This document shows positions 27,357 through 57,526 of a DNA stretch of 57,526 bases, one piece after another. The stretch's first letter is position 1; every line of letters starts with the position of its first letter. Origin of the DNA: an uncultured Candidatus Saccharibacteria bacterium (lineage in GTDB: Bacteria; Patescibacteriota; Minisyncoccia; Phycocordibacterales; GWA1-40-21); the NCBI GenBank assembly GCA_964513515.1, contig CAZEMP010000002.1, positions 1 through 57,526 of the forward strand, read 5' to 3'. A program made the translations under genes and the position numbers. A model generated the notes under the pieces. The model worked only from the letters and a program-made list of their open reading frames with translations, was not told where the DNA came from and searched no databases.

Positions 27357-27878
27357 CTACTGGGCGAGTACGGCAGACGGGCAGTTGGCACCCAAGTTAT
27401 GGGAGAGAAACTTGAAGCCCAAGAACCACCAGCCATCGTGCCAGCCGTAGCTCCGGCTCCAACTTCTACCACTCCAATACAGACACAGGATGCCGCGGCG
27501 GTCGATCGGGTCCCGAAAAACCGTGCCGTCGAAGTAGATGTAGCGGATGTCACCGTTCACCTTCTTCTTCCACGATTCAGGGATGAGATGCTTATTCTCG
27601 ATGAGTGTCTGGACGATCCTGGCATCGAGGCGGGTGTGTCCCCTCTTCTTCAGGCGTTTCAGCCTCTCCTCACCCGTCACGAACGTCTCACCTTCCTTGA
27701 GCATCGTCTCGAAGCGGATCTTCGTCAGATCCACCTTAGTCAGTGTCATTGAGCGAGTATCAGTTTCGTCCTTCACGATCGTTAAGCCATCGTTGACAGA
27801 CTTCGGGTCGGAGGACTTCGTGCGGTCGATCTTGATCGTCTTCGGCTTGCCAATGATGACCTTGGTGATTTTCCCCAT
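27357..27878 (-). CDS. GC-rich hypothetical protein (173 aa from the SD-preceded Met)
   Basis: A sampled line is about 62% G+C against about 30% in the flanks. AAGGAG lies 8 nt upstream of the ATG at 27878, and a terminator follows. The C-terminus is Trp-rich (CLYWSGRSWSRSYGWHDGWWFLGFKF). No named family. Confidence 0.7.
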   Translation of the reverse strand: MGKITKVIIGKPKTIKIDRTKSSDPKSVNDGLTIVKDETDTRSMTLTKVDLTKIRFETMLKEGETFVTGEERLKRLKKRGHTRLDARIVQTLIENKHLIPESWKKKVNGDIRYIYFDGTVFRDPIDRRGILCLYWSGRSWSRSYGWHDGWWFLGFKFLSHNLGANCPSAVLAQ

Positions 27879-28343
27879 ATTAGTTTCTCCTTCCATCAAT
27901 TTACTTGACTACCGCCTATATTTAGTAGTCATAGCCAGAAGATCTCATTTTATAAGAGCTTTTGGCTATGACTACTCATGAATATGTCAAAGAACACTAT
28001 TCACACATCAATGAGTAGTTATTTTTTAATTATTTTTACCAATAATATCTGGCTTAAATTAAAAAATTCCTCGTTAGAGGAAAGATATAGATTGATTAGT
28101 CTTATCTTTCCATAATAATGCCTTTTGCATTATTTGGCTGGATTTAGCACCTACTTATTTCTAAGGGTTGCTGATGGGTCGTGGAGCCAGTTGCTCTCGC
28201 CATACTCTTGATACAACTATTAAGTTGTATGATCACGATATCATACCCAATAAATATGTCAAGTAGTTAAATGCCCTTATTTTAAGGCATACAATAGCGA
28301 ATTGACGGCTTTGTGGAGCAAAACCGTCTGCTATGTTTAATTT

Positions 28344-41200: not shown

Positions 41201-42553
41201 TAATACACCGTTTACATCACATGGGGCAAAATTATTATTCCAGCAATAAGCATAAGTGCACGGATATGCCTCTACTTTACTCAAAGGTAAAAAATAAAAT
41301 AAACTACTCGATATTATTATCACACCAAATATCATTATTAAATATTTTTTTCTGTAAACCAAAGCACCCAAACCCATAACCACAAGAACAAGTGCTATAA
41401 TTTTTAGAAACATTGCAATTGTTGAAAATGTTGGTGTTGTTGTACTTACAACGGTCATGACTTCATAATTTTGTGTATCAAGAATGGTGCCATTTGATGA
41501 AAGTATTATATTAGCTTTTGGATTAGTACAGTCTTTAGTGATTGGTATTTTTAGATTAATTATTGAAAAGTTAGATATATCTTTTGTTGTGGTTTCCGAA
41601 CATAGACCTGTATCGTCAGTGATGCTCGCTGTAATTGTACTTGTACTTACTCCTGTCTGCGTTGAGAATACTTGAAGATTTGCTGTGTCTCCTCTCCTAT
41701 AATATGTTTTGTCAAAAACTACGTTTTTTATTTCACCCGCTATGCCCGATAGAATGTAATTGATTGAGATAGTGTTAGATGTAGTTTTTGAATCTGGGGT
41801 TTTTAGGAAAAAAGAAATATTGTAACTCTGTGGATTTGATGCTTTTGGTAAGATTATGTTTATATCACTAATCCCCTTCTTGATTATGATGTTTTCTCTA
41901 GAACCTCCTGTATCAGAAACTGTCTCTCCAAATATTGTGTGACTTCTAGTTATAAAGTTTGGTGTAAAAATTGTGTTTGTAGATAAATTGCTTTGTACCA
42001 AACATTTTATGGTGACTACATCTGTAGAGTTTATAAGAACCACTTGGCTCAATAAATATTGTTCCTTCGCTGTATTTTTAACGAGATAACAAGAGTCGGG
42101 AATAATTTGAATTATATTTGGTAGATTATTCGTAATTTTTACCTCGCCAACCAGAGCTGTGCCCAGAGATAATCCATTCTCATTTTTACTATCAATCCAC
42201 ATTCTGTATGTACCTACAGATATTGAAGATGGAATACTATAATCAATAACCTTTGTTATCTTAGTGTTTTCTGCTAAGGAGATGGTTTCTTCATATACCT
42301 TTTCATCGAAAATCACTTGGTTTGTTGAAGATGACGTCAATCGCACAGAATATTTTATCTGTGGTTGGGCTCCTACCCTATTTGATATATCAAAAGATAT
42401 TTTATAGTCTCTATCATTACTTAAGACTATTTTTGCATTACTTATATTTACTGTGGCTACGACTGTGCCTTGGGAGTTTTGGGCGAAGGCATTGTGAGAG
42501 AAAAGTGTAGTGAGAAGAAATATAGAAAACATTGATCTCAATATTATTTTCAT
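38255..42553 (-). CDS. giant surface protein: signal peptide, conserved N-module, TM hairpin, Ig/PKD-like domains, 12 NHL repeats, C-terminal PKD-like domain
   Basis: 1432 aa with twelve ..GxxNxRIQKFxSxGxYxSxFGSxGxxxGQFxxPxGIAxDSSxNIYVxD.. units, i.e. two six-bladed NHL propellers. The N-terminal ~370 aa are nearly identical to the adjacent paralog. Confidence 0.85.
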   Translation of the reverse strand: MKIILRSMFSIFLLTTLFSHNAFAQNSQGTVVATVNISNAKIVLSNDRDYKISFDISNRVGAQPQIKYSVRLTSSSTNQVIFDEKVYEETISLAENTKITKVIDYSIPSSISVGTYRMWIDSKNENGLSLGTALVGEVKITNNLPNIIQIIPDSCYLVKNTAKEQYLLSQVVLINSTDVVTIKCLVQSNLSTNTIFTPNFITRSHTIFGETVSDTGGSRENIIIKKGISDINIILPKASNPQSYNISFFLKTPDSKTTSNTISINYILSGIAGEIKNVVFDKTYYRRGDTANLQVFSTQTGVSTSTITASITDDTGLCSETTTKDISNFSIINLKIPITKDCTNPKANIILSSNGTILDTQNYEVMTVVSTTTPTFSTIAMFLKIIALVLVVMGLGALVYRKKYLIMIFGVIIISSSLFYFLPLSKVEAYPCTYAYCWNNNFAPCDVNGVLYCYTPVYLPSGCTITSTDIIGANQYCTYTPPIPAPAITSFYATPNPVDYNNSATISASITNSTSCTLTGNGRVISWGSPSTITTDSGPITEDEYFQLYCKGDGGEITKDLTISVIPIINVSIDASATSTTPEGSVDISWNSTNADSCDVTKNDSNWITSTGSYQYVSQFSSDGFAGIKFSSPSGIVRDSAGNLYIADTGNNRIQKFTSDGTYISQFGSYGTDNGQFNGVLGIAFDSSNNIYVVDQGNHRIQKFTSAGTYISQFGSFGSSNGQFQYPSGIATDSLNNIYVVDINNFRIQKFDTSGTYLSQFGSYGGDDSQFLSNPWGIAIDSSNNLYIVEGSYNYGRIKKFTSSGIYISQFGSGGSGEGQFSNPKGIAFDSSNNIYVVDQGNHRIQKFTSAGTYISQFGSFGTGDGQLLDPRGITLDSSGNLYIVDTGNNRIQKFTSAGAYDSKFGSYGTSAFSPNNITLDSSGNIYITENVNNHVQKFTSFGTYLSRFGSSGSDNSQFSYPSGITTDSSNNIYVVDTGNNRIQKFTSSGVYISQFGSGGSGQGQFSGPRGIATDSSNNVYIADVYNHRIQKFDPFGNFLWWLGYDGSSIGIHTAGLGYNGSGNGQFLQPNGVALDSSDNIYVVDTYNYRIQKFNSNGVYLSKFGSVGSGNGQFQYPYGISLDSSGNIYVLDASNFNIQKFNSSGGYVSKFGSYGSANYQFLGPTDLSIDSSGDVYVVDMSSHIIKKFSSPDNNLSGTKSSGPLTTDTTFTATCVKGTYSASKSVTVTVGPTTVSPPTNFAVNSSTCGQIGLSWDSPESTFKIYKDGVKINPDVSFSPYIDVLPVGDTNPHSYYVIANNAILGDSIPSNTLSAIASLCTTPEVVSNATCTLLQAGNASGDTNIYVNRTTTLRATLSTTDVEIPSLITKWTGTNIPTGGITLSGLEYNKIYTTIGPKTINAETSGTLLSGETFTSSCSTTTIVKLDPGTGGEI

Positions 42554-42584
42554 AAGATGATTTTATCATAAAATAATAATATAT

Positions 42585-42611
42585 AGAACGGCGCGCGAAG
42601 CGCGCCGTTCT
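42585..42611 (-). terminator. GC-clamp hairpin terminator between the two NHL genes
   Basis: AGAACGGCGCG-cgaag-CGCGCCGTTCT. Confidence 0.7.
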
Positions 42612-42654
42612 ACTATCCTTATTTTTATATTTTGCTCTTTGATTTTTAATCTTC

Positions 42655-45600
42655 CTAGATTTCCCCGCTCGTTCCTGTATCTAATCTTACTGTTGTGGTT
42701 GCAGAACAATCTGAACTAAATAGGGTTCCGTCTGGACGAATAACTGTTGTGAAAGCATTTATCATTTTTTGTCCTACTGTTGTGTATATTTTATTTAATG
42801 TGTCACCAGAAGTTCTATTCTTTAATAGATTTGTACCTATCCATAATGTACTTTGAGGATCGCCGGCGGTATTAGTAATTTTCCATATAGTATTTCTATT
42901 TAAATAGATATTATTATCTCCAGGCTCGTTACCCGTCTGTGTAACTGTACATATAGATGCTGGTTCTGGTTGTACAGGACAAATCCTTGTAGTAATTGGT
43001 GACTCTCCAAGCGTACAGCCAAGAGGGCTTGCTTCTATAACGTTTCTGGTCTGTGTGCTTCCTACCGAACAAGCAGATGGAAACCAATCATCATATAAAA
43101 ATGCAATGCATGCGACTTCACCTGGGATACAATTTTGGGTCAAAGATAATGTTTCGGAAGGTTCACCAGAACAACCTTGTGGAAGGTTACCCACAAGAGT
43201 TCTTGTCCTAAAACCTTCAGCTGGACACACAGATGGTAGCCAGTCTGAATAGTCATATCCTACACACTGACAAGATGAACCCCCGCAAGATCTATGCACA
43301 ATAGGCGTTGTAACAACCGTTGGGGTTTCATTATAAACATTAATAATAACTAACTCTGATCTAGAATTTTCAGTATTCATACATGTCGCTGTAAAAGTTG
43401 ATGCTTCATTTAGATTTCCAGTATTTATATTAGTACCTGACGTTGCCGTTGAAAGTATTCGATTAACATCACCTAAGTTTTCCACTATTTCGCAGGAATC
43501 TGCTCCAGTTGAAGTCCAAGAGAGAGTTGTAGAGTTACCAGACAAAATAGATGATGACGCTGCTGTAAATTGTATATTTATTGGAAAAGCTGCTAGGTCC
43601 ACCAAAACTGAGTCTGTCTTTGAATTTGTATTATACATACATGTTGCAGCAAAAGTAGTTGGTGATGTTATTGGACCAGATGATCTAGAGCCAGATAAAC
43701 TACTTACTGTCATTGATTGTGAAAATTTTTGAATTCTATCATTCCCGCTGTCAACCACATATATACTATTTGAAGAATCAACAATCGCTGCTATTGGTGC
43801 TTTAAACTGGCCGTCACCACTTCCGTATGAACCAAACTGAGATACATAAACGCCTGAAGAAGTAAATTTTTGAACTCGATTATTTATTTCTCCACTTCCG
43901 CTCTCTACTACATATAAATTATCATAAGCGTCGGTAGTTATTGATGCTGGAACATAAAATTGTCCGTTACCGTCTCCATAAGAACCAGATTTGGAGATAA
44001 ACGTACCGGAAGAAGTAAATTTTTGAACCCAGTTGGAATAATCTAAAACATATACCTTACCTGTTGAATCAGTCGTCATTGATATTACATAATAAAACTT
44101 TCCATCACCTGATCCTAAAGAGCCAAATTTTGAAATAAATCTTCCTGAAGAATCAAACTTTTGAATACTCGCTGATTCATTTTTAATATCATAGTTACCA
44201 TTATAATCATAGCCGTTGTAACGATATGCTACATATATATTATCTGAAGAATCTATAGTTATTGCGGTTGGAAATGGTCGGCCTACGCCATTGCCAATAC
44301 TATAAAATTTGGAAATAAATCTTCCTGAAGAATCAAACTTTTGAACCCTACCATCAGTTGAATCTAAAATATATATATTATCTGAAGAGTCTATCGCCAT
44401 ACCAATCATACTCATAAAATAACCGTCGATATCACTACCGTACTCACCAAATTGAGATATGAACGCACCAGATGAATCAAATTTTTTAATTTTAACATTC
44501 TTGGTATCTAAAACGTATATATTACCAAGTGAATCACGAGCAATTCCCTTATCGCCACCATGAAATCCGTAAACATCAAGGAATGTATTGAATTGAGAAA
44601 AATATTCATAACCAGATGCGCTTGTAACTAAGGGGGAACCGTTCTTTGTTATCAAACAAGAGTTAGCGCCAGCCGAGCTCCAAGAAACCGTAGTTGAACT
44701 ACCTGTCAGAACCACAGTAGAACTAGCGTCTATATTAACCATTAAAGGAGATGAACAATGTTGACTCAAAACTGGTGAACCGCCAGAACAATTGTTTGGT
44801 AGTGCAGCTGTAATGCTTCTGGTTTGTTGATTGTTTGAACAAACCCCCCAATCAGAGTACGTAAAGGATGTACAAGTTTGAGGAATAACTGATACCACAA
44901 CCTGATTCGTTGCTGTGCCGTCATCTCCGGTGCAGGACATAGAAAATGTCGTGTCAGATGTCAGTGGTCCAGATGATACTGAGCCCGATATATTTTGAGA
45001 AAATTTTTGAACACGAAAATTATTTTTATCTAAAATATACACATTATCAAAAAAATCTATAGATATGGGCAGTTCCGATCCAAAGGAAATACTATTGCCA
45101 GAAAAAAATTTGGAAATATATTCACCAGAAGAAGTAAATTTTTGAACATTATTAACACCTGAAACATAAACGTTATCCAAAGAATCGATACCTATTCCTA
45201 TCGGATAATAAAACTGGCCATCACCAGTACCATATGAACCAAATTGTAAAATATAGTTACCAGTAGAATCAAATTTTTGAATACGATGGTTAAGTCTGTC
45301 GGCAACATATATATTGTCTGAAGAATCAACGGCTATTGCAAAAGGGCTGCTGAATTGTGCAATACCAGAGCCAGAGGAGCCAAATTGGGAAACATATTGT
45401 CCGGATGAACTAAATTTTAGTATACGATTATTATCAGTGTCTGCAATATATATATTTCCAAAAGAATCAATGCCTATATCTCTAGGTGAGCTAAATTGAC
45501 CGTTGCCAGAGCCAGAGGAGCCAAATTGGGAAACATATTGTCCGGATGAACTAAATTTTAGTATACGATTATTACCTGTGTCTACAACATATATGTTATC

Positions 45601-47277
45601 TGATGAATCGGCAACTATCCCTGTAGGATAATAAAACTGACCATTACCCGAACCAAAGGAACCAAATTTTGAAACATATTGCCCAAAAGAGTCTAGTTTC
45701 TGAAGACGGGGAACATCCACACCTCCTGCATAATCACGATAGATATCCGTAACGTATATATTACCTAAAGAATCATTGGATATATCGCTACTAAACCAAA
45801 ATTGTCCATTACCCCCCCCAAAAGATCCGCCGGTTTGAAAAGAATATCTAAATACCCCTGAATAAGCTGTAGTTTTACCGTTACCCGTAAGTGTACAAGA
45901 AGTACTTTGGTTTGTATTGAAAGAAATGTTTGTTGAAGCACCGTAAGCAACGGTTGAAGAAGCTGCGGAAATATTAATAATCGGTGGAGCCGCTTTAACA
46001 GATCCGGCAAAACTCATTGAAAAAAGAAAGATGATAATCAATAGGTTTAATTTTGAAATCCTATTCCTATAATACCCCTCCGTAATAATCAAAATAATAA
46101 CCAGTAATATAATTGCTACAATTATTGTATATATTGTAGTTGTTGAAAATGTTGGTGTTGTTGTACTTACAACTGTCATGACTTCATAATTTTGTGTATC
46201 GAGAATGGTACCGTTTGATGAAAGTATTATATTGGCTTTTGGATTTGTACAATCTTTAGTAATTGGTATTTTTAGATCAATTATTGAAAAGTTAGATATA
46301 TCTTTTGTTGTAGTTTCCGAACATAGACCTGTTTCATCAATAATACTTGCTGTAATTGTACTTGTATCTACTCCTGTTTGTGTTGAGAATACTTGAAGAT
46401 TTGCTGTATCACCTCTCCTATAATATGTTTTGTCAAAAACTACGTTTTTTATTTCACCTGCAACGCCTGATAAAATATAACTGACTGAGATAGTATTAGA
46501 TGTAGTTTTTGAATCTGGGGTTTTTAGGAAAAAAGAAATATTGTAACTCTGTGGATTTGATGCTTTTGGTAAGGTTATGTTTATATCATTAATCCCCTTC
46601 TTGATTGTGATGTTTTCTCTAGAACCTCCCGTATCAGAAACTATTTCTCCATATAATGTATGACTTCTAGTTATAAAGTTTGGTATAAAAATCGTGTTTG
46701 TAGACAAATTACTTTGAATCTTACATTTTAGAGCAAGTTCATCGCTCAAACTTATAGATACACCTTGGTCTAATAGATATCTTGTCGTGCTTGTACCAAC
46801 TATTAGATAGCAAGTATTAGGAATGATTTCTGTTGTGTTTGATATGCTCTTTGTAATATTTACTTCCCCTACAAAAGCAACTCCGAGCGGTAGACCGTTT
46901 TCATTTTTACTATCAATCCACATTCTGTATGTACCTATAGATATTGAAGGTGGGATAGTATAATCAATAACTTTTGTTATTTTAGTGTTTTCTGCTAGAG
47001 AAAGAGTTTCTTCGTATACTTTTTCATCAACTAGTGGTTCAGTATTTGATATAACTTTTGTTAGTCTTACAGAGTATTTTATTTGAGGTTGGGCTCCTAC
47101 CCTATTTGATATATCAAAAGATATTTTATAGTCTCTATCATTACTTAAGACTATTTTTGCATTACTTATATTTACTGTGGCTACGACTGTGCCTTGGGAG
47201 TTTTGGGCGAAAGTTGTACTAGAGAGAAGTGTGAGGAGGGTGATGATAGAGAAAAATGGGAGAAATAGTTTTTTCAT
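42655..47277 (-). CDS. giant surface protein, paralog of 38255..42553 (2 x 6 NHL repeats separated by Cys-rich/Ig-like modules)
   Basis: 1540 aa with the same N-module, TM hairpin and C-terminal ..KIYTT.G.K.IN....GEI tail. The NHL blocks are divergent. Confidence 0.85.
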   Translation of the reverse strand: MKKLFLPFFSIITLLTLLSSTTFAQNSQGTVVATVNISNAKIVLSNDRDYKISFDISNRVGAQPQIKYSVRLTKVISNTEPLVDEKVYEETLSLAENTKITKVIDYTIPPSISIGTYRMWIDSKNENGLPLGVAFVGEVNITKSISNTTEIIPNTCYLIVGTSTTRYLLDQGVSISLSDELALKCKIQSNLSTNTIFIPNFITRSHTLYGEIVSDTGGSRENITIKKGINDINITLPKASNPQSYNISFFLKTPDSKTTSNTISVSYILSGVAGEIKNVVFDKTYYRRGDTANLQVFSTQTGVDTSTITASIIDETGLCSETTTKDISNFSIIDLKIPITKDCTNPKANIILSSNGTILDTQNYEVMTVVSTTTPTFSTTTIYTIIVAIILLVIILIITEGYYRNRISKLNLLIIIFLFSMSFAGSVKAAPPIINISAASSTVAYGASTNISFNTNQSTSCTLTGNGKTTAYSGVFRYSFQTGGSFGGGNGQFWFSSDISNDSLGNIYVTDIYRDYAGGVDVPRLQKLDSFGQYVSKFGSFGSGNGQFYYPTGIVADSSDNIYVVDTGNNRILKFSSSGQYVSQFGSSGSGNGQFSSPRDIGIDSFGNIYIADTDNNRILKFSSSGQYVSQFGSSGSGIAQFSSPFAIAVDSSDNIYVADRLNHRIQKFDSTGNYILQFGSYGTGDGQFYYPIGIGIDSLDNVYVSGVNNVQKFTSSGEYISKFFSGNSISFGSELPISIDFFDNVYILDKNNFRVQKFSQNISGSVSSGPLTSDTTFSMSCTGDDGTATNQVVVSVIPQTCTSFTYSDWGVCSNNQQTRSITAALPNNCSGGSPVLSQHCSSPLMVNIDASSTVVLTGSSTTVSWSSAGANSCLITKNGSPLVTSASGYEYFSQFNTFLDVYGFHGGDKGIARDSLGNIYVLDTKNVKIKKFDSSGAFISQFGEYGSDIDGYFMSMIGMAIDSSDNIYILDSTDGRVQKFDSSGRFISKFYSIGNGVGRPFPTAITIDSSDNIYVAYRYNGYDYNGNYDIKNESASIQKFDSSGRFISKFGSLGSGDGKFYYVISMTTDSTGKVYVLDYSNWVQKFTSSGTFISKSGSYGDGNGQFYVPASITTDAYDNLYVVESGSGEINNRVQKFTSSGVYVSQFGSYGSGDGQFKAPIAAIVDSSNSIYVVDSGNDRIQKFSQSMTVSSLSGSRSSGPITSPTTFAATCMYNTNSKTDSVLVDLAAFPINIQFTAASSSILSGNSTTLSWTSTGADSCEIVENLGDVNRILSTATSGTNINTGNLNEASTFTATCMNTENSRSELVIINVYNETPTVVTTPIVHRSCGGSSCQCVGYDYSDWLPSVCPAEGFRTRTLVGNLPQGCSGEPSETLSLTQNCIPGEVACIAFLYDDWFPSACSVGSTQTRNVIEASPLGCTLGESPITTRICPVQPEPASICTVTQTGNEPGDNNIYLNRNTIWKITNTAGDPQSTLWIGTNLLKNRTSGDTLNKIYTTVGQKMINAFTTVIRPDGTLFSSDCSATTTVRLDTGTSGEI

Positions 47278-50944: not shown

Positions 50945-53416
50945 TTATAGCTTGTTCATATTTTTCCAATTCTTCCCTTCTGAAACTTCTGCTTTCATCA
51001 AAACTCCTTTTGTATCTTTAAGTGGAATGAGTGATTCCATAATAGATTTTATTTTAGGTGCAATTTCAGAGATTATATTTTCTTCCACCTCATATACAAG
51101 CTCGTCATGGACATTTAAAAGAAGCTTCACTTTTTGATCTATTTTTTCTTTTATTAAAAATTCATCTATTTTTACCATTGCTAGTTTTACAATATCCGCT
51201 TCTGTTCCTTGTATTGGTGCGTTGATAGCCATTCTTTCAGCCATAGCACGGATGAAAGGGATCTTACTTCTCAAACCTTCAAAGTATCTTCTTCTTCCAA
51301 AAAAGGTCTCCGTGTATCCATTCCTTTCTGCCTCTATTTTTATATTTTCTAAAAATTTTGCTAATCCAGAAAACTTTTTAAAGTATTCATTGAGATATTT
51401 TTGTGCTTCCTCTCTACTTACAAGACCTTTGTATGCTGGATGTGCTTTTGTAATAAGAGTCTGTCCCGAACCAAGATTTACACGCAATGCATTTACACCC
51501 ATACCATACATAATTCCAAAATTTATAACCTTTGCTCTACGTCTCATTTCCTTATCGACTTTATCAAGTGGTACATCAAAAACTTCTGAGGCAACTGCTG
51601 TATGTACATCCTCACCCTTCTTAAAAATATCAATCAATTTCTCGTCTTGCGCTAAAAATGCTGCGATTCTGAGTTCTATTTGGGAATAATCTAAAGACAA
51701 AAGTTTTGTTCCATTATCGGAAATAAATGCGGTTCTGATATTTCTTCCGAGTTCACTTTCATTTGGGATGTTCTGTAAATTTGGATTTGAAGATGCCATA
51801 CGGCCTGTCGTTGTTCCTGTTTGAAGAAACTTTGCATGAAGCCTTCCATCTTTATCTAAAAGATCTGGTATAACATCTATGTAAGTAGAAAGTAATTTTT
51901 GAAATTCTCTATGTTCTATTACTAAATCTACTATAGGGTGCATATCTCTCATTTTTTCAAGCTCTGATTCTTTTGTAGACAACGCTCCAGATCCAGTTTT
52001 CTTTTGATTCTTCGGTTTCAAACCAAGCTTTACAAAAAGTATTTCTCCGAGTTGTTTTGGAGAGTTTATATTAAATTCCCCTCCGGCTAACTCCCATATT
52101 TTTTTCTCAATTATGGAAAGTCTCTGATGATAATCTTTGGAAAGTTTCTCAAGTTCCTTTTTATCAACCTTTATACCAACCCTTTCCATTTTTTCAACTA
52201 TCGAAATAAGTGGCTTCTCTATTGTTTCCCAAACTTTTATTAAATCTCTCTTTTTTAATTCTAGAAGTAAAATCTCCTCTGCCTTTTTCAAATCTTTCTC
52301 TTTTGTAAAATTATAAATATCCTCCGATGTTGGATTGGTAAGATTTGAATTGATAAGCCAAAGCATAACAGAAAGCTCTTTTATTTTTTGATTATCTTCT
52401 TCACTAGCAAACAATCCTGTATTTATTGTTCCACTTTTTATCTCAAGATTCTCTCTGGAGGCTTCATCTTCGGAACTTTTAAGTTTTATCTTTGGATTCA
52501 AAGTTTCCTTCAGTCTTGCTCCGAGCGTTCTAAACTCCAAATCACTCCATAAAGATAATATTTTCTCTGCCTCTATTGATTCTTTCCAAGATTTTTCTGG
52601 AATAACAAAATCCACCGGAGCATCGAGACGAATAGTACCAAGCATTTTAGAAAATTTTGCCTCTTCCTCTCCTTCTTTTAAAAGTTCTATTATTCTTTCT
52701 TTTATTCCCGCCTCTTCAAATTGTTTTTTGTTCTTCTTTAATTTTTTATATATATCTTCAATAGAGCCAAATTTTTGTATTAAGTTGCTAGCCGTAACTT
52801 CTCCAATACCTTTTATACCAATAATGTTATCTGATGGGTCACCTCGAAGCCCTTTATAATCTGGCAAAAGTTTTGGGCCAAATCCGTATCTTGCTATCAC
52901 TGCTTTTTCATCATAAATAATTGTATCTTTTATGCCTTTTTTAAGAGTATATACTCTGACTCTTTCTCCATCTACAAGCTGGAGCGTATCCATGTCACCA
53001 GAAGCTATTACAATATTTAAATCTTTCTGTTTTTTCATCTTTTCTGCGATTGTTCCTATCATATCGTCAGCTTCAAAACCTTCTTTTGAATACACGGGGA
53101 TATTAAACGCCTTAAAAATATCGTACGATCTTTTTAATTGAGAAATAAGTTCGTCATCTGCTTTTGCTCTACCAGCTTTGTAATCTTTGTATGCAATGTG
53201 GCGATATGTTGGCTTTGGTAAGTCGTAACATGCAGCGATATAATCTGGCTTCAGATCAGAAATAATTTTCAAAAGCATTGTTGAGAGTCCATAAAGTGCA
53301 CCTGTTGGCTCACCTTTACTTGTCGCAAATTCTGGTAATGCATGATAAGCACGATGAATAATCGCGTGAACATCAAGCAATACTAGTGTTTTTTGTTTAT
53401 CCGTTTTTTTAGCCAT
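50945..53416 (-). CDS. polA: DNA polymerase I (5'-3' exonuclease plus family A polymerase domains)
   Basis: N-terminal FEN motifs (LLDVHAIIHRAYHA, EADD) and polymerase motifs A (LLSLDYSQIELRI), B (RRRAKVINFGIMYG) and C (NVHDELV). Confidence 0.95.
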   Translation of the reverse strand: MAKKTDKQKTLVLLDVHAIIHRAYHALPEFATSKGEPTGALYGLSTMLLKIISDLKPDYIAACYDLPKPTYRHIAYKDYKAGRAKADDELISQLKRSYDIFKAFNIPVYSKEGFEADDMIGTIAEKMKKQKDLNIVIASGDMDTLQLVDGERVRVYTLKKGIKDTIIYDEKAVIARYGFGPKLLPDYKGLRGDPSDNIIGIKGIGEVTASNLIQKFGSIEDIYKKLKKNKKQFEEAGIKERIIELLKEGEEEAKFSKMLGTIRLDAPVDFVIPEKSWKESIEAEKILSLWSDLEFRTLGARLKETLNPKIKLKSSEDEASRENLEIKSGTINTGLFASEEDNQKIKELSVMLWLINSNLTNPTSEDIYNFTKEKDLKKAEEILLLELKKRDLIKVWETIEKPLISIVEKMERVGIKVDKKELEKLSKDYHQRLSIIEKKIWELAGGEFNINSPKQLGEILFVKLGLKPKNQKKTGSGALSTKESELEKMRDMHPIVDLVIEHREFQKLLSTYIDVIPDLLDKDGRLHAKFLQTGTTTGRMASSNPNLQNIPNESELGRNIRTAFISDNGTKLLSLDYSQIELRIAAFLAQDEKLIDIFKKGEDVHTAVASEVFDVPLDKVDKEMRRRAKVINFGIMYGMGVNALRVNLGSGQTLITKAHPAYKGLVSREEAQKYLNEYFKKFSGLAKFLENIKIEAERNGYTETFFGRRRYFEGLRSKIPFIRAMAERMAINAPIQGTEADIVKLAMVKIDEFLIKEKIDQKVKLLLNVHDELVYEVEENIISEIAPKIKSIMESLIPLKDTKGVLMKAEVSEGKNWKNMNKL

Positions 53417-53417: not shown

Positions 53418-53852
53418 TTATATTTCTATTTCTCTTTCATTTTCGCTCATAAATTTAAAAAATATTTTTGCATGATTTTCAGGCAAAACATCTATCACTC
53501 TTTCCGGCCATTCTATAAAAATAATATTATTTCTATCTGATAAAGTTTTATCCCAATCAAGAACCGAAAGCTCTTTGGCTGAATCAAGTCTATATGCATC
53601 TATATGTATAAGTTTCTTAAATTTTTTATTATTCAAAGGATATATTTTTTCAATAACAAATGTTGGACTTGTTACATACTCATCAATATCAAATAGTTTT
53701 GCAACTGCTTGGGTAAATGTTGTTTTACCAGAACCAAGCTCACCGTAAAGTCCCACAATCAAAGCGGTGTCATAAATACCCATAGATATTTTTTCTATAA
53801 AGTCTTTGGCTATTTTTTCTGTATCAGAAACACTTTTGCTTATAATTTTCAT
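53418..53852 (-). CDS. tsaE: tRNA t6A37 biosynthesis ATPase TsaE (YjeE)
   Basis: GLYGELGSGKTTFTQ P-loop, SPTF and HIDAYRL motifs. Confidence 0.9.
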   Translation of the reverse strand: MKIISKSVSDTEKIAKDFIEKISMGIYDTALIVGLYGELGSGKTTFTQAVAKLFDIDEYVTSPTFVIEKIYPLNNKKFKKLIHIDAYRLDSAKELSVLDWDKTLSDRNNIIFIEWPERVIDVLPENHAKIFFKFMSENEREIEI

Positions 53853-53933
53853 TAGACCAATTTTATCACAATAAAAGCTAATTAAAATGAGCCAAATTTC
53901 TTAAGTATTTAAAAATTTGGCTTATAAAAAAAT

Positions 53934-53971
53934 AAAGAGCGGAGAGGGGATAAAACCCTCTTCCGCTCTTT
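53934..53971 (-). terminator. intrinsic terminator of GC-island gene A
   Basis: AAAGAGCGGAGAGGG / loop / CCCTCTTCCGCTCTTT (one bulge) followed by ATTTTTTTAT on the minus strand. Confidence 0.7.
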
Positions 53972-53976
53972 GGAAC

Positions 53977-54909
53977 TTACTGGGATCTCACCCCATGATT
54001 CGTTCCGTCAAACCTCCACGCCCAAGGACCTGGGCCTGTGAAGTCTTCCTTCGAGGACTCCATGCCCTCACCAGTGGTCATGAGCTTGATCCCATGATGT
54101 CCCTCGTAACTGATGGACTTCATAGTATTCGGAAGGATGGTAGCGAGCTCCTTTCTCGCCTCCGTCCCATCTTCCTTCAGCTCCAATTCGTAAACCTTCA
54201 GCTCCTTCGAGCTTTGGTTTACGACCATCACCGTTTTACCGGTGACCACCCTCTGCACCGGCTTGGGAGCCGGTGCAGTGGGCGGGGTGACTTTCGTCAC
54301 CATGACTTGGGGTTGGGGAGGCTGCTGGATCTTTCCGAAAGCGCTGAAGAACTTCATCATCGCTTTCCGGTTAGCTTCCAGCTGACCCTCGATCGAGTTG
54401 ACCTTGGCCATGTCGAGCGAAGAGATCCTCACCTCCTCGGGTTGGACCTGCTTGCCCGACTTCTTCAGACTGTCCTGCAAGGACCTCTGAAGAGTTGCCA
54501 TCTGATCTCCGATCGCTTTGCGATCCGCTTTCTGGAGGCTGTGGAGGCATGCCCCCATAGCCAAGACCATGATGAGCATCGCTCCCACACCGGAGAAAAA
54601 CAACTTCCAGTAAGGAGGCTGAAGCGCTTGGACTTCCTCCAGCACTTGCATCCTCTCCTGACGGCGAGCTTCTCGGATGGCGAGGTCGAACATCTCCTTG
54701 AGTTGATGCTTCGTCTCTTCCGACAAGCTCACCAGGTTGTTTTCCTGATGAACCACGACAGGGTGAACTTCTTTTCCTTCCTTTCCCTGTTCCGAACCGT
54801 TCGTCCCGTTCTGTCTCGTCGACGCCCCTCCCTCTGTCGAGGGAGACGGCATCAGACCCGCACGCTCGCGCGCGAGCCTCTCTCTTCGCTCCCTGCGACT
54901 TTCAGCCAT
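53977..54909 (-). CDS. GC-island gene A: single-pass membrane protein with coiled coil, Pro-rich linker and a ~100-aa C-terminal domain shared with gene B
   Basis: About 57% G+C, with SD AAGGAGG 8-10 nt upstream of the ATG. It has an Arg/Glu-rich N-terminus, the TM WKLFFSGVGAMLIMVLAMGACLH, the linker PPTAPAPKP and the domain ..KVYELELKEDGTEARKELATILPNTMKSISYEGHHGIKLMTTGEG..GPWAWRFD. Confidence 0.75.
   Translation of the reverse strand: MAESRRERRERLARERAGLMPSPSTEGGASTRQNGTNGSEQGKEGKEVHPVVVHQENNLVSLSEETKHQLKEMFDLAIREARRQERMQVLEEVQALQPPYWKLFFSGVGAMLIMVLAMGACLHSLQKADRKAIGDQMATLQRSLQDSLKKSGKQVQPEEVRISSLDMAKVNSIEGQLEANRKAMMKFFSAFGKIQQPPQPQVMVTKVTPPTAPAPKPVQRVVTGKTVMVVNQSSKELKVYELELKEDGTEARKELATILPNTMKSISYEGHHGIKLMTTGEGMESSKEDFTGPGPWAWRFDGTNHGVRSQ
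54006..54315 (-). repeat. 310-nt direct repeat encoding the shared C-terminal domain (second copy 55815-56124)
   Basis: The two copies differ at a single position by hand alignment (CCCAAGGACC versus CCCACGGACC). Confidence 0.9.
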
Positions 54910-54970
54910 GGGGCTCTAGCCTCCTTGTATTTAAAGAATTTTTTACGAAGAACTTCTCACTTCACTCTAT

Positions 54971-54999
54971 AGTTTACACTAAACAAACTTTTTTGTCAA
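54971..54999 (-). promoter_or_regulatory. promoter of gene A (TTGACA-17-TAAACT)
   Basis: The minus strand reads TTGACAaaaaagtttgtttagtgTAAACT. The -35 is at 54994-54999 and the -10 at 54971-54976. Confidence 0.7.
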
Positions 55000-55119
55000 T
55001 AGGTAATAAACGAAAAAGACTACCTCATTTGAGATAGTCCTCTGGTCTAGGGGGCGGGGTGTTTTTCCTCCTGTAAAACACCCCGCCCCACAAAACCTTG
55101 GGCTTCTTAGCCCTTCTTC
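54993..55119 (-). repeat. 127-nt spacer repeat, copy 1 (gene 3' end KKG-stop, two terminator hairpins, -35 box)
   Basis: Matches 55673-55798 with 3 substitutions and one 1-nt indel. Contains GGGGCGGGGTGTTTT..AAAACACCCCGCCCC (55051-55089) and GACTACCTCATTTGAGATAGTC (55018-55039). Confidence 0.9.
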
Positions 55120-55574
55120 CTCTCCGGAAGCTTGGAGAGATCCTGGGTTCTCGAGAAGTTCCCCTTCTCGTCGAACTGGACCAGCCAGCTTCCGTCCCTG
55201 AACTCCTGCTTCTGGAGCTCCTGGACGGCGTCCCCCCCTTTCAGCTTGAGCTGAAGGGTGAGGAGCTGGTAGCCGGTGTAGTTGTACACACCGACCGAGC
55301 GAGGCTTCACCAGGTCTTCGTTCTTGACCTTGTGCTCCTCACCGTCCACCAGGATGGACTTCTTCTTCTCGCCGTCCAGGATCTTGACCTGGATGGCGAA
55401 CTTGCCGGAGTTGACCACGTACACGACGTGGTCCAACGACGTCTTCGCCGGCGCGCTCGCCAAGACGATCTCTCCCGAGATCGGCTCGGCGTCGCTCACC
55501 TGCGCCGCCTCCACCTTCATCGATCCGAAGAAGGAGAAAACGGTGACGAACAGCATGAAGAGGATGCTCTTCAT
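55107..55574 (-). CDS. GC-island gene C: small secreted protein
   Basis: Signal peptide MKSILFMLFVTVFSFFGSMKVEA/AQ, a beta-rich mature part, and the SD GGGAGG. No family recognised. Confidence 0.75.
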   Translation of the reverse strand: MKSILFMLFVTVFSFFGSMKVEAAQVSDAEPISGEIVLASAPAKTSLDHVVYVVNSGKFAIQVKILDGEKKKSILVDGEEHKVKNEDLVKPRSVGVYNYTGYQLLTLQLKLKGGDAVQELQKQEFRDGSWLVQFDEKGNFSRTQDLSKLPERKKG

Positions 55575-55650
55575 TTGAAACCTCCCAATCTCTGCTTCCC
55601 CTTTCGGGTTGAAGTCTTACAAGATTTTACGAAGAACAAATTCGTTTAAC

Positions 55651-55679
55651 AGTATATCATGTGTCATATTTCTTGTCAA
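55651..55679 (-). promoter_or_regulatory. promoter of gene C (TTGACA-17-TATACT)
   Basis: The minus strand reads TTGACAagaaatatgacacatgaTATACT. Confidence 0.7.
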
Positions 55680-55798
55680 TAGGTAATAAATGAAAAAGAC
55701 TACCTCATTTGAGATAGTCCTCTGGTCTCGGGGCGGGGTGTTTTTCCTCCTGGAAAACACCCCGCCCCACAAAACCTTGGGCTTCTTAGCCCTTCTTC
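55673..55798 (-). repeat. 127-nt spacer repeat, copy 2
   Basis: See 54993-55119. Hairpins at 55730-55768 and 55698-55719. Confidence 0.9.
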
Positions 55799-56484
55799 AA
55801 GGCTTTTCCTCCTTCGTCAAACCTCCACGCCCACGGACCTGGGCCTGTGAAGTCTTCCTTCGAGGACTCCATGCCCTCACCAGTGGTCATGAGCTTGATC
55901 CCATGATGTCCCTCGTAACTGATGGACTTCATAGTATTCGGAAGGATGGTAGCGAGCTCCTTTCTCGCCTCCGTCCCATCTTCCTTCAGCTCCAATTCGT
56001 AAACCTTCAGCTCCTTCGAGCTTTGGTTTACGACCATCACCGTTTTACCGGTGACCACCCTCTGCACCGGCTTGGGAGCCGGTGCAGTGGGCGGGGTGAC
56101 TTTCGTCACCATGACTTGGGGTTGAAGCTTTTGGCTTTGAGGTTTTTTTGAAACAGGCAGGCTCCTTCTCGTCTCGCGACTTGACCTCTCCACCTGCTCC
56201 ACTTCCTCTCTGCACTTCTTCACCAGCTTGTCGCTCGTGATCCGAAGCTGGTCTACCAAAGACTTTTTGGTCTCTTCGACCTTACGGACGTCTTCGGCTG
56301 CCCTCTTTCTCGTCTCGTTGAGAAGGGAGCCGAGTTCATGCGTGCTGGTCTGCTTACCAAAAATGAAAGCGACGACCAGCAAGAGGAGAACGACGGTGAC
56401 CTCAACGAAGATCCAAATACCGTTCTCCCATCTTTTCCTCATAGGGAGGAAAAGTCCTGCGGTTGGCGGATCAAACTGACTCAT
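55786..56484 (-). CDS. GC-island gene B: paralog of gene A (TM, coiled coil, same C-terminal domain)
   Basis: The start is set at Met14 (56484), which is preceded by GGGGGGAAG. The listed ATG at 56523 abuts the predicted -10 box (56523-56528) and so lies upstream of the predicted transcription start. TM IWIFVEVTVVLLLLVVAFIF. The C-terminal ~100 aa are identical to gene A. Confidence 0.75.
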   Translation of the reverse strand: MSQFDPPTAGLFLPMRKRWENGIWIFVEVTVVLLLLVVAFIFGKQTSTHELGSLLNETRKRAAEDVRKVEETKKSLVDQLRITSDKLVKKCREEVEQVERSSRETRRSLPVSKKPQSQKLQPQVMVTKVTPPTAPAPKPVQRVVTGKTVMVVNQSSKELKVYELELKEDGTEARKELATILPNTMKSISYEGHHGIKLMTTGEGMESSKEDFTGPGPWAWRFDEGGKALKKG

Positions 56485-56522
56485 AACTTCCCCCCTTTTT
56501 ATAGAACGAATTTCCCAACTCA

Positions 56523-56551
56523 ATCATACACCAAAATATATTACTTGTCAA
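56523..56551 (-). promoter_or_regulatory. promoter of gene B (TTGACA-17-TATGAT)
   Basis: The minus strand reads TTGACAagtaatatattttggtgTATGAT. Confidence 0.65.
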
Positions 56552-56576
56552 TATAACAATTGGAGTTATGCGTTGT

Positions 56577-56606
56577 TAAAAAACCGCCATCTATAGCGGT
56601 TTTTTA
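56577..56606 (-). terminator. intrinsic terminator overlapping the stop of the Gly/Tyr-rich protein gene
   Basis: AAAAAACCGC-catctata-GCGGTTTTTT. Confidence 0.75.
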
Positions 56607-57526
56607 ACACCCTTTGCTTATTTGATTCTCTCCTACTGTAATCCACTCATCTTTTGCGATGCTTCTTATGTATTCAGAACTATTTATTTTTCCTAATCTT
56701 GAGAGTTTTACAAGCTTTGCTGAAGCATCAGATGAAAGTAATACTTTATTTATTCTTGCATACTCTTCAACTTTACTAATGTCTGAATTGTCAGAAACTA
56801 TTTGGTTTAGAATTGCTGATGTAGCAAAATTGTTTTTGTCATTTTTTGCTTCCATCACATCAACATAAGCATTTGCAAATAATTTTTGAGCTTCAATTTT
56901 TCTTTTTAAGAAAACGTAGGCCAGTATTGTGCTCCAAGATAAAAGTAATGAGATAAAGATTATTATAGAATAATAATCTCCGAAGCCAGTAGAAGGAATG
57001 TCACTTAGATAAACAGAATCTATGTTTGGATTCGTATCTGTGTAAGCCAATACTTGATTTGAAAGTGTTGGTTGTCCATAGTAAGAAGGGTTTGATTGGC
57101 CATAGTAAAAACTAGGCTGACCACCATAATATTGAGGGTAATATGGATAATTTCCACCACTGTAATAACCCACCGGAGCTACTGGAGATGCTGCAAGAGT
57201 AGATGTTCCTTGAACTGTAACTACTGTTGGTCCTGAAGTTGTTATTGAACCACCACCAACTGAATAACCACCACCTAAACTAAATCCGCCATAGTATCCT
57301 CCCATTCCATAACCCCCCCAATTATAAGAAGATCTACCAACATTTCCTCCTCTTGATTCTGAGACTAGATTTTCAGATGGAGTTGAAGGGTTTGTACCAT
57401 TATATAAACCTTCATTATAAGCATAACTATTATCTGGTAGATTGGTACCGTTATATACATCATCGTTATAAGCATAATCATATCCACCAGATAAATTTGT
57501 TCCGTTATATACTGGACTATTAAATG
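56604..57526 (-). CDS. Gly/Tyr/Asn-rich low-complexity protein with one TM and a C-terminal globular domain (5' end outside the window)
   Basis: The frame has no stop from 57305 up to the window edge, so the listed Met is probably internal. It has YNGTN(L/P) and GGYYGG repeats, the TM YYSIIIFISLLLSWSTILAYVFL, and a ~110-aa tail. Confidence 0.7.
   Translation of the reverse strand, partial: FNSPVYNGTNLSGGYDYAYNDDVYNGTNLPDNSYAYNEGLYNGTNPSTPSENLVSESRGGNVGRSSYNWGGYGMGGYYGGFSLGGGYSVGGGSITTSGPTVVTVQGTSTLAASPVAPVGYYSGGNYPYYPQYYGGQPSFYYGQSNPSYYGQPTLSNQVLAYTDTNPNIDSVYLSDIPSTGFGDYYSIIIFISLLLSWSTILAYVFLKRKIEAQKLFANAYVDVMEAKNDKNNFATSAILNQIVSDNSDISKVEEYARINKVLLSSDASAKLVKLSRLGKINSSEYIRSIAKDEWITVGENQISKGC

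Follow-up and report, generated by a model that had tools for sequence, protein, structure and literature searches.

Islands of deviant base composition are routinely read as horizontal transfer. The stretch of DNA analyzed here (57,526 nucleotides; the window) contains such an island between tsaE and the gene for a Gly/Tyr-rich surface protein. A first description made from the letters alone (the sequence-only reading) had offered two explanations, recent acquisition from a foreign, possibly GC-rich source, or an unusual constraint. Is the island foreign to this genome, and if it is native, what keeps its G+C so high?

The flip in composition was confirmed by sliding-window comparison. In 200-nt windows, G+C runs at 0.51-0.61 from 53.95 to 56.5 kb, compared with 0.26-0.38 on either side. 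The island genes have 53-59% G+C and a GC3 of 0.66-0.91, compared with a genome of about 0.33 G+C and a host mean GC3 of 0.23 (sd 0.02; 29 host genes). The three minus-strand ORFs previously placed here (A, B and C) were recovered at the same coordinates, and are listed with their associated features:

56604-57526, minus strand: Gly/Tyr-rich surface-protein gene, the upstream flank (GC3 0.19; reading frame open to the window end)
56574-56609: terminator hairpin of the Gly/Tyr-rich gene
56523-56551, minus strand: gene C promoter (TTGACA, 17 nt, TATGAT; 11 of 12 positions match)
55786-56484, minus strand: gene C (232 aa from ATG; G+C 0.53, GC3 0.66; hairpin-dense coding sequence)
55815-56124, minus strand: gene-conversion tract, copy in C (310 nt, one mismatch to the A copy)
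55694-55776, minus strand: 3' module of C (GC-clamp hairpin of 15 bp whose loop is CCAGGAGGA; an intrinsic terminator and its T-run follow)
55651-55679, minus strand: gene B promoter (TTGACA, 17 nt, TATACT; TG precedes the -10 hexamer; match at 11 of 12 positions)
55107-55574, minus strand: gene B (155 aa; G+C 0.59, GC3 0.91; hairpin-dense coding sequence)
55014-55097, minus strand: 3' module of B (GC-clamp hairpin and terminator; second copy of the 3' module of C)
54969-55002, minus strand: gene A promoter (TATTGACAAAAAAGTTTGTTTAGTGTAAACTAT; clade-conserved)
53977-54909, minus strand: gene A (310 aa; G+C 0.56, GC3 0.69; hairpin-dense coding sequence)
54006-54315, minus strand: gene-conversion tract, copy in A (310 nt, one mismatch to the C copy)
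53935-53970, minus strand: terminator hairpin of gene A (T-run follows)
53418-53852, minus strand: tsaE, the downstream flank (AT-rich, GC3 0.17)
50945-53416: polA, after tsaE

Each gene had been described as a self-contained cassette, and all three indeed show an autonomous promoter-ORF-terminator organization with a near-consensus promoter, an SD and a terminator. The promoters combine TTGACA and a 17-nt spacer with TAAACT, TATACT or TATGAT, and the best three promoter matches in 53.3-57.5 kb (10-11 of 12 positions) sit directly upstream of A, B and C. The same GC-clamp hairpin (GGGGCGGGGTGTTTT/AAAACACCCCGCCCC) lies 3' of both B and C, followed in each case by a second hairpin with a T-run, and the terminator of A is unlike these, as originally reported. 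The GC-clamp hairpin of C also occurs in L007, with a compensatory G-C to A-T change. The spacers between the ORFs had been called AT-rich; this holds only outside the GC hairpins (G+C 0.40-0.42 in 200-nt windows).

Both base composition and codon usage are atypical for the host, as in a genomic island. Codon usage is approximately the mirror image of that of the host (correlation -0.25), for example 0.79 versus 0.24 for AAG and 0.89 versus 0.11 for ATC. AGR codons make up 0.62 of the Arg codons of the island, compared with 0.79 in the host and 0.10 in GC-rich relatives. The GC1 and GC2 values of A and C fall on the GC1/GC2-versus-GC3 regression of the clade, where a gene from one of its moderately GC-rich genomes would be expected, and given these values A and C may have been imported from GC-richer relatives. 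The plus-strand GC skew across the island (-0.05 to -0.28) is in the range of the adjacent minus-strand host genes, and the third codon position contains 0.43 G and 0.31 C.

The only other stretch of comparable G+C in the window, which also encodes aminoacyl-tRNA synthetases, ribosomal proteins and type IV pilus genes, is at 27.2-27.95 kb. Its GC-rich ORF (27357-27899) had been grouped with the island as one module. This grouping is not supported; the ORF belongs to a DGR-target family and has no excess RNA structure (z = 0.0). A Harrisonbacteria homologue of this ORF adjoins bAvd and an RT, and the two members of its 126-nt TR/VR pair differ at 15 positions, each of them an adenine in the TR.

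The island proteins belong to a rare, uncharacterized family in which a seven-strand beta-sandwich is combined with a stalk and either a TM helix or a signal peptide. No family had been recognized for them at first sight, and neither Pfam nor NCBIfam gives a match. A and C are membrane-anchored. Protein A consists of a charged N-terminal region, a TM helix, a coiled coil, a linker and the beta-sandwich, and protein C of a short N-terminus, a TM helix, a coiled coil, a Pro/Ala linker and the beta-sandwich. They are paralogous single-pass membrane proteins with a near-identical C-terminal domain (104 of 106 residues in common), as had been proposed. B is secreted and consists of a signal peptide and the beta-sandwich only; its description as a small signal-peptide protein was correct, and we add that it is a distant paralogue of the A/C domain. 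An exhaustive search of 1.8 billion representative proteins yielded seven further matches, six of which are family homologues and one a marginal repeat match (P0058). Some residues of the domain are invariant throughout the family, so the protein is still under purifying selection.

The relatives with which the locus was compared are Paceibacterota MAGs with a PolA 71-81% identical to that of the window. Their gene order is conserved: the Gly/Tyr-rich gene, one to three genes for small membrane-anchored or secreted proteins (the slot), tsaE and polA. This synteny was seen in 11 GTDB genome loci and further metagenome loci, and the orthologues of the Gly/Tyr-rich gene are always directly upstream of the slot (11 genome loci, 28 metagenome loci). 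Sister genomes with tsaE beside the Gly/Tyr-rich gene and no island between them had been envisaged, but no empty slot was found among the syntenic relatives, each of which has one to three slot genes. The 34-nt promoter of gene A is conserved at the orthologous position, with 94-97% identity in L013, L014 and L074 and 88% in L009. The coding sequences are hyperdivergent. L013, L014 and L074 share 69-83% nucleotide identity with the window in the flanking genes, whereas their slot coding sequences can be aligned with it barely or not at all. At the protein level, identity to the relatives is 35% or less, or undetectable, for the slot compared with 56-81% for TsaE and the PolA values above. Between divergent genomes the most similar alleles are 58-60% identical, and no near-identical alleles are common to them.

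L006, from another assembly, illustrates the conserved frame. Its order is terminator, promoter, B-like gene, hairpin, promoter, A-like gene, hairpin and an AT-rich tsaE. The orthologue of gene A is directly upstream of tsaE (35% identity), and the counterpart of gene B encodes 163 aa with 42% identity over 133 aligned residues (32% over 173 by BLASTP). Slot GC3 exceeds flank GC3 in 21 of 21 distinct AT-rich loci. In GC-rich relatives it is about equal or lower (L075, 0.66 versus 0.64-0.77 in the flank; L107, 0.48 versus 0.59). Across loci slot GC3 ranges from 0.32 to 0.73, varies independently of flank GC3 and is similar to that of GC-rich clade members such as L018, L019 and L075. Although gene A and its L006 orthologue are only 35% identical, their GC3 is 0.63-0.69 in both, so high GC3 is being maintained and is not the relic of one old import.

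The coding sequences of the island contain hairpins at a density far beyond chance. One calculation gave an MFE z of -8.9 for B and -11.1 for C. In another (n = 40), z ranged from -9.2 to -11.8 relative to dinucleotide shuffles and from -5.5 to -10.8 relative to shuffles of synonymous codons (A, -11.8 and -10.8; B, -9.6 and -5.5; C, -9.2 and -9.6, respectively). G+C alone cannot explain the hairpins, because shuffles that preserve composition and codons fail to reproduce the folding energy. Homologues have z of -5.0 to -9.8, and the median of 20 other slot genes, 18 of them in addition to the two L094 family members, is around -4.2. The controls give a median of -0.26 for 29 host genes, -1.1 for 18 genes of GC-rich relatives and -1.6 for tsaE. 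For GC-rich genes that lie upstream of tsaE but are more distant, little of the folding is in excess of what their arrangement-shuffled versions give (z -0.3 to -5.3). Nowhere else in the window is there a long stretch of z <= -4, and the island hairpins are local and arranged back-to-back. Openness around the start codons does not clearly exceed that of the gene bodies. The "unusual constraint" of the sequence-only reading is supported, and hairpin packing probably accounts for the odd composition.

The antisense strand is over-structured as well (z -3.3 to -9.4). G-U pairs in stems number 423 in the sense direction against 229, a ratio of 1.85 that only modestly exceeds the 1.40 expected from composition. 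C and the homologue nearest to it (in L007) have only 42 of 215 base pairs in common, and compensatory changes are not above shifted controls. Non-conserved base pairs fit selection for generic foldedness and, equally, a process that generates hairpins.

The slot also recombines. L014, L074 and L095 have flanks 92-99% identical, but their homology is lost within the gene and returns at the terminator; near-identical relatives differ by the abrupt replacement of the extracellular part. Within the window A and C share the 310-nt tract with one mismatch (T/G) and abrupt borders, and B and C share about 130 nt of 3' module, also with abrupt borders. Both show gene conversion. No further copies of the 310-nt repeat occur in the window.

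We consider it moderately probable that the island is a native, vertically conserved slot for small surface proteins, in which coding sequences turn over rapidly and high G+C is held by selection for folded mRNA. The lineage is AT-rich Paceibacteria (Parcubacteria, CPR), and the slot has the gene for the Gly/Tyr-rich surface protein on one side and tsaE-polA on the other. Its conserved frame is made up of a strong SD, stable terminator hairpins and a near-consensus promoter, and the coding sequence between them changes quickly as recombination replaces the extracellular portion and paralogues exchange sequence through gene conversion. This genome carries the cassette three times. Its products display the seven-strand beta-sandwich on a stalk of TM helix, coiled coil and Pro-rich linker, or release it, and the domain may serve as a binding module for the surface of a host or partner. 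The high G+C does not mark a donor. It accompanies local hairpins that are exceptionally dense throughout the transcript, and selection for strongly folded mRNA would most likely hold it up against the AT drift of the genome. The structure would be selected at the RNA level and the hairpins would stabilize the mRNA, making it long-lived and highly expressed. Tentatively, one may go further and regard the hairpin architecture of the whole coding sequence as the functional device itself, serving either exceptional mRNA persistence or partner recognition in an AT-rich CPR cell, or a continual, hairpin-templated rewriting of the extracellular part. Protein sequence and nucleic-acid folding would then co-evolve inside a conserved expression slot.

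How does selection on a native slot compare with the other explanations? Recent acquisition from an unrelated high-GC donor or mobile element, or an assembly chimera, has in its favor the G+C of the three genes and a layout that recalls phage morons, but is scarcely credible. The locus is occupied in all syntenic relatives, many of which have raised-G+C genes that are homologous or positionally equivalent at this very place. The promoter within the island is native to the clade and Arg codon choice is host-like. The search of 1.8 billion proteins found no homologue in a GC-rich genomic context, and all five homologues examined at the DNA level (L006-L010) lie in AT-rich flanks. No integrase or transposase ORFs are present in the region and no direct repeats flank the island, in agreement with the sequence-only reading, and the window has no tRNA gene. 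A chimera is ruled out by independent assemblies with the same kinds of junction: L001 carries the island interior at 99.9% identity, and L006, L008, L010 and L105 have equivalent composition junctions. It is rather unlikely that the composition is a by-product of recombination, such that alleles of a hotspot circulate among Paceibacteria of differing G+C, with G+C raised by GC-biased gene conversion or by import from GC-richer clade members and with hairpins that have no function of their own. The mosaic breakpoints within the gene among near-identical relatives, the conversion tracts in the window, the position of A and C on the clade regression and the decoupled slot GC3 would all be expected of such a hotspot. 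Yet the folding energy is lost in shuffles that preserve composition or codons, near-identical alleles do not pass between divergent genomes, the promoter tracks species relationships and Arg codons stay of the AGR type. The clade sample is mostly AT-rich, yet an AT-rich allele is found in 0 of the 21 AT-rich loci.

The over-structuring of both strands raises the idea that the hairpins act at the DNA level as a diversification device, in which quasi-palindromes cause template switching or cruciform-mediated recombination and so produce both hypervariation and inverted repeats. Hairpin positions that are not conserved but regenerated per lineage, the extremely divergent coding sequences beside conserved flanks and the abrupt homology breaks are consistent with this. 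The bias of stem G-U pairs toward the sense strand, though only modestly above shuffled controls, and the purifying selection evident from the invariant residues argue against it, and we regard it as quite improbable. Tuning at the codon level, in which G/C-ending, genome-rare codons are selected to slow or condition the translation of exported proteins and structure is incidental, is very doubtful. It would suit the mirror-image codon usage and the TM helix or signal peptide of every product, and a similar suggestion has been made for a surface gene of Gracilibacteria that is hypervariable (PMC6851277). However, synonymous-codon shuffles keep codon usage and lose 5-11 sd of folding energy, and other exported proteins in the window are AT-rich (e.g. 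38255-47277, GC3 0.22).

An excess of 20-25 points of G+C marks a native, conserved locus in this case, so composition-based calls of horizontal transfer in CPR genomes can mislead. A clade-conserved promoter/terminator frame, piecemeal replacement of the coding sequence and folding 9-12 sd beyond shuffles have not previously been described together. If the structure is adaptive, the island is a natural example of whole-coding-sequence structural design in bacterial mRNA and a handle on surface proteins that episymbiotic Paceibacteria probably use for partner contact. If the hairpins are the functional device, it is a hypervariable locus of a previously undescribed kind.

Several known systems resemble the island in part. 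The variable proteins of DGRs are likewise hypervariable surface-binding proteins of CPR bacteria. Unlike DGR targets, the island lacks a TR/VR pair (the copies of the 310-nt repeat differ by one T/G), and the DGR-type gene of the window lacks the excess RNA structure of the island genes. In and next to the island the ORF list shows no RT-sized ORF. An integron cassette array was considered and rejected, as each cassette has its own consensus promoter, no integrase is present and the 3' elements are perfect 15-bp hairpins with terminators rather than attC-like imperfect repeats. Phage morons, reportedly described by Juhala and Hendrix in 2000, are autonomous promoter-gene-terminator units of deviant composition. 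The island shares with them insulated promoter/SD/coding sequence/terminator units that differ in composition from their neighbors and lie between conserved genes. Unlike morons, it lies outside any prophage, flanked by tsaE/polA and a conserved cellular surface-protein gene; descent has preserved its position and promoter throughout a bacterial clade, and its cassettes are paralogues of one family.

A parallel in CPR is the PTD-repeat surface gene of a Gracilibacteria genome, which is hypervariable, encodes one N-terminal TM helix with an extracellular remainder, uses genome-rare codons and is predicted to form periodic mRNA stem-loops, for which the authors speculate on mRNA stabilization or protein binding (Sieber et al. 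2019, PMC6851277). The island is similar in each of these features, a hypervariable CPR locus with a TM helix and extracellular part, genome-rare codons and predicted stem-loops. The Gracilibacteria gene consists of tandem 9-nt repeats that vary within one population, whereas the island coding sequences are non-repetitive, vary between lineages by segment replacement and have their G+C raised by more than 20 points.

The vls locus of Borrelia (vlsE and its silent cassettes) is a surface locus of about 49% G+C in a genome of about 28.6%, and its high G+C is kept across species despite low identity. It diversifies by segmental gene conversion, and the authors infer strong selection for maintaining composition (PMC11499132). 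Similarly, the island has G+C far above that of its genome, conserved across relatives, and segmental gene conversion links its copies. The vls system has one expression site and promoterless silent cassettes, whereas all three island copies have a promoter, SD and terminator and no silent cassette array was seen in the window. The coding-strand GC skew of vls is about 0.5 with G runs, whereas whole-sequence skew in the island is host-like, and the third position has 0.43 G against 0.31 C. The island proteins are unrelated to those of vls, and the trait that distinguishes the island is its hairpin density.

Between tsaE and a Gly/Tyr-rich surface-protein gene, the composition of the window flips sharply. 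From 53.95 to 56.5 kb the G+C is 0.51-0.61 and in the flanks 0.26-0.38; the sole other G+C outlier of the window lies at 27.2-27.95 kb. The genes concerned are the following.

53977-54909 (-), gene A, GC-rich ORF of the island
55107-55574 (-), gene B, GC-rich ORF of the island
55786-56484 (-), gene C, GC-rich ORF of the island
56604-57526 (-), Gly/Tyr-rich gene, which runs past the window end and is longer than the listed 233 aa
27357-27899 (-), the window's other GC-rich ORF (the 27-kb ORF)

The sequence-only reading had described three minus-strand ORFs, a composition flip, promoters, Shine-Dalgarno (SD) sites and terminators, all of which were confirmed. The third-codon-position G+C (GC3) of genes A, B and C is 0.69, 0.91 and 0.66, against a mean of 0.23 (sd 0.02) for 29 host genes. 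The best three sigma-70-like matches of the region sit directly 5' of the three genes. They consist of TTGACA, a 17-nt spacer and TAAACT, TATACT or TATGAT, with 10-11 of 12 positions in agreement, and a GGAGG-type SD site precedes each gene. An identical 15-bp GC-clamp hairpin, then a T-run terminator, is found 3' of B and C, and gene A has a terminator of its own. Outside this lineage, represented by the window and contig L001, the full GGAGG-loop GC-clamp hairpin with 9 or more stem base pairs was found in locus L007 alone; L006 and L009 have imperfect versions. Only two positions (window 55084 and 55088, L001 886 and 890) separate the window from the independent contig L001. Both lie in the GC-clamp hairpin that follows B, in its 5' arm, and leave L001 with a shorter stem. 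Membership of the cassettes in an integron (attC) was considered and rejected, as was their membership among phage morons.

Genes of the window include those for aminoacyl-tRNA synthetases, ribosomal proteins, components of type IV pili, TsaE and PolA. The nearest PolA relatives (79-81% identity) are in MAGs labelled Candidatus Paceibacterota or Patescibacteria, followed by Candidatus Taylorbacteria. Relatives of the locus were collected through the flanking proteins PolA and the Gly/Tyr-rich protein. In 11 genome loci among the PolA relatives the order is Gly/Tyr-rich gene, one gene of ~170-290 aa, tsaE and polA. Further metagenome loci, found by the Gly/Tyr protein, have the same order, and those with two or three genes in this slot are L094, L095 and L105. 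The 2,076-bp contig L006, from a different assembly, repeats the window layout: terminator, promoter, B-like gene (163 aa, GC3 0.73), hairpin, promoter, A-like gene (330 aa, GC3 0.63), hairpin and AT-rich tsaE. L008 carries an A-like gene, a GIY-YIG gene and tsaE, L010 a Gly/Tyr-type gene and then a family member, and the interior of the island has a 99.9% match in L001, likewise of a different assembly. Because these independent assemblies carry the same layout or interior, the assembly chimera raised by the earlier reading is ruled out. Recent foreign acquisition was proposed there too, with syntenic orthologues named as the mark of vertical inheritance, and such relatives are what was found.

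The Gly/Tyr orthologues (alignment A6) have a signal peptide, low-complexity G/Y/T/S repeats, a conserved [IV]PxTG, a hydrophobic helix and KRK. The latter part resembles a sortase sorting signal, yet a further conserved ~100-aa domain comes after it. In more distant Paceibacteria, GC-rich genes for small lipoproteins or secreted proteins lie directly upstream of tsaE; homology of these genes to the window family is undetectable.

L028 7631-7969, GC-rich gene upstream of tsaE
L035 2486-3157, likewise
L037 3506-3964, likewise
L039 401-853, likewise
L071 7295-8465, likewise
L073 6697-7134, likewise

The raised composition belongs to the slot rather than to a donor. Of the distinct loci, 21 have a flank GC3 of 0.35 or less, and in all of these each slot gene exceeds its flanks in GC3 (0.32-0.91). 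Where the relatives are GC-richer, slot GC3 is about equal to that of the flanks or lower (0.66 vs 0.64-0.77 in L075, 0.48 vs 0.59 in L107). Gene A and its L006 counterpart are 35% identical and GC3 is 0.63-0.69 in both, while TsaE of those genomes is ~79% identical. The GC richness of the slot is thus either maintained or repeatedly renewed, because neutral synonymous sites would long since have drifted to the host value. An exhaustive search of 1.8 billion representative proteins gave seven further matches. Six of them are homologues of the family and share its architecture; the other, the 949-aa repeat protein P0058 (E = 5.9e-4), is probably spurious. All five homologues with DNA available are in AT-rich flanks. 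A regression of GC1/GC2 against GC3 as a donor test places A and C on the line, and B and the 27-kb gene off it. The description of the island as compositionally foreign is not supported, given the raised GC3 of slot genes in AT-rich loci and the AT-rich flanks of the homologues. Elsewhere in the window, a DHFR-like gene (21579-22097, +) has a moderately raised GC3 (0.47 vs 0.23 in the host). Two very large tandem paralogues of 1,432 and 1,540 aa (38255-42553 and 42655-47277, -) with near-identical signal peptides have host-like AT-rich composition, so exported proteins here are not generally GC-rich.

The slot genes are also packed with hairpins. Folding energy was compared with that of shuffled versions (z, negative being more structured; n=40).

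Gene A: z -11.8 against dinucleotide shuffles, -10.8 against synonymous-codon shuffles
Gene B: z -9.6 and -5.5, respectively
Gene C: z -9.2 and -9.6, respectively

Separate runs against dinucleotide shuffles gave z -8.9 for B (MFE -239.3 vs -180.2 +/- 6.7 kcal/mol) and -11.1 for C (-304.9 vs -231.0 +/- 6.7 kcal/mol). The median is -0.26 for 29 host genes (range -3.5 to +2.7) and -1.1 for 18 genes of GC-rich relatives; tsaE has -1.6 and the 27-kb GC-rich gene 0.0. Family homologues, including the AT-richer L010 allele, range from -5.0 to -9.8, and for 20 further slot genes (two of them L094 family members) the range is -1.0 to -10.6 and the median about -4.2. In a rough sliding scan (8 shuffles per scanned segment) the island is the sole long contiguous run of z <= -4 in the window. 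Local hairpins of 6-23 pairs follow one another back to back, and the median pair span is ~22 nt; an example is an 11-bp palindrome, CTGCACCGGCT/AGCCGGTGCAG, coding for the PTAPAPKPVQ linker. Only 42 of 215 pairs are common to C and its L007 counterpart, and compensatory changes between the two show no excess over shifted controls; what is conserved is therefore foldedness rather than any single fold. In the distant GC-rich genes upstream of tsaE absolute folding is strong, and arrangement contributes little beyond composition. The sequence-only reading had offered an unusual constraint as its alternative; this is supported and takes concrete form as hairpin density. Outside the island, an intergenic inverted repeat at 1199-1290 (40-nt arms, 88% complementary, with the nested palindrome TTCCCGCGCAGGCGGGAA) has one of the strongest folding z values. 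At 13144-13280, two strong hairpins adjoin between two minus-strand genes; the rough scan gives z ~ -21, and they probably form a pair of terminators.

In the full-length model of A (pLDDT 66) the N-terminal region is helical and charged; a long helix that includes the TM follows, then another helix, a disordered Pro/Ala linker and a C-terminal beta-sandwich. A model of that domain alone (pLDDT 76) shows seven strands. B consists of this domain preceded by a signal peptide. The residues N, Y, G, F, G and W are invariant across the family, and because they persist the proteins are judged to be real and under constraint. No family had been recognised for the products, and this still holds: Pfam, NCBIfam, PDB profile searches and Foldseek against PDB and BFVD gave no significant match. 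The best Foldseek/PDB matches are weak beta-sandwiches such as cholesterol-dependent cytolysin domain 4 (E = 3e-3, TM ~0.4-0.5), which are a lead only.

The frame of the locus is conserved and its content is not. Nucleotide identity to relatives is 69-74% for the Gly/Tyr gene, 75-78% for tsaE and 79-83% for polA, and the 34-nt gene A promoter is 94-97% identical in L013, L014 and L074; slot coding sequence could not be aligned to that of relatives at the nucleotide level. At the protein level identity is 56-81% for TsaE, 71-81% for PolA and at most 35% or undetectable for the slot. An iterative HMM search joined the window family to L014, L017 and L012, and found no link to the L015/L075/L018 type. 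The loci L014, L074 and L095 are 98-99% identical among themselves in the Gly/Tyr segment and 92-93% in tsaE. They are homologous across the promoter and into the slot gene as far as its N-terminal part; there the homology breaks abruptly, to return at the terminator; the slot holds one gene in L014 (6382-7382), one frameshifted gene in L074 (8197-9415) and three genes in L095 (2674-4911). This break inside the slot gene indicates that the extracellular part has been replaced by recombination. Within the window, 104 of 106 C-terminal residues are the same in A and C; the 310-nt tract that codes for them has abrupt borders and just one mismatch, T/G. A 3' module of ~130 nt is common to B and C; it begins with the last four codons (KKG, stop), takes in both hairpins and reaches the next -35 hexamer. 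These conversion tracts show the same recombination process between paralogues. The island was also considered as a DGR target and rejected, as the 310-nt repeat differs by one T/G.

The 27-kb ORF is, by homology, a separate matter. It had been joined with the island as one module; it proves to be a homologue of CPR DGR variable proteins and has no excess RNA structure (z 0.0). Its GC3 is 0.76-0.78, and ~48 homologues occur in CPR genomes, with G+C near 0.58-0.60 in genomes of 0.41-0.55. A Harrisonbacteria homologue (L002 10001-11118) adjoins bAvd and an RT. All 15 mismatches of its 126-nt TR/VR pair fall at TR adenines, so this homologue is a genuine DGR target. No TR copy for the 27-kb ORF is found within the window. 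At 28099-28217 (-) lies a SAM-I riboswitch (Rfam RF00162, 58.7 bits), and its tail resembles a terminator. The next gene downstream on the same strand, ~200 nt off, is the 27-kb ORF, which has no evident link to SAM metabolism.

The best-supported interpretation of the island is a native, conserved slot for the expression of small surface proteins that recombine fast, present in triplicate in this genome. Its G+C excess goes together with a hairpin-dense transcript, and selection for that transcript probably keeps the excess up. The most economical role of the hairpins would be mRNA stabilisation, because the genes have a consensus promoter, a strong SD site and a double terminator; a strongly folded mRNA would be stabilised and would give high expression. 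Foreign acquisition or a chimera is poorly supported beside the syntenic relatives and independent assemblies.

Three rivals to a selected transcript were considered. The G+C could be due to GC-biased conversion, or to import from GC-richer members of the clade, with incidental hairpins. Conversion tracts are present, which speaks for this. Against it, Arg codons stay AGR as in the host and unlike GC-rich relatives (share 0.62 in the island, 0.79 in the host, 0.10 in GC-rich relatives), and near-identical slot alleles in divergent genomes, a sign of recent transfer, were not found. The hairpins could also template diversification at the DNA level. The antisense strand is likewise over-structured, but less so than the sense strand, and G-U pairs are distributed 1.85 to 1 between sense and antisense (1.40 to 1 in synonymous shuffles), a bias that supports selection on the transcript rather than the DNA and is only suggestive. 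Codon-level translational tuning is the third. Island and host codons are almost mirror images (AAG 0.79 vs 0.24, ATC 0.89 vs 0.11, TAC 1.00 vs 0.23), but the excess of structure persists against synonymous-codon shuffles.

A literature search gave partial analogues only. The nearest is the Borrelia vls locus, whose G+C (~49% vs 28.6% in the genome) is conserved across species and which diversifies by gene conversion (PMC11499132); unlike the island, it shows strong GC skew and includes silent cassettes. A hypervariable repeat gene of Gracilibacteria (PMC6851277) resembles the island in its CPR setting, TM topology, rare codons and predicted mRNA stem-loops, but is a tandem-repeat array. The cassette layout is like that of phage morons, although the island is not in a phage. 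What is new here is a variant of the hypervariable surface-protein locus, together with an uncharacterised protein family.
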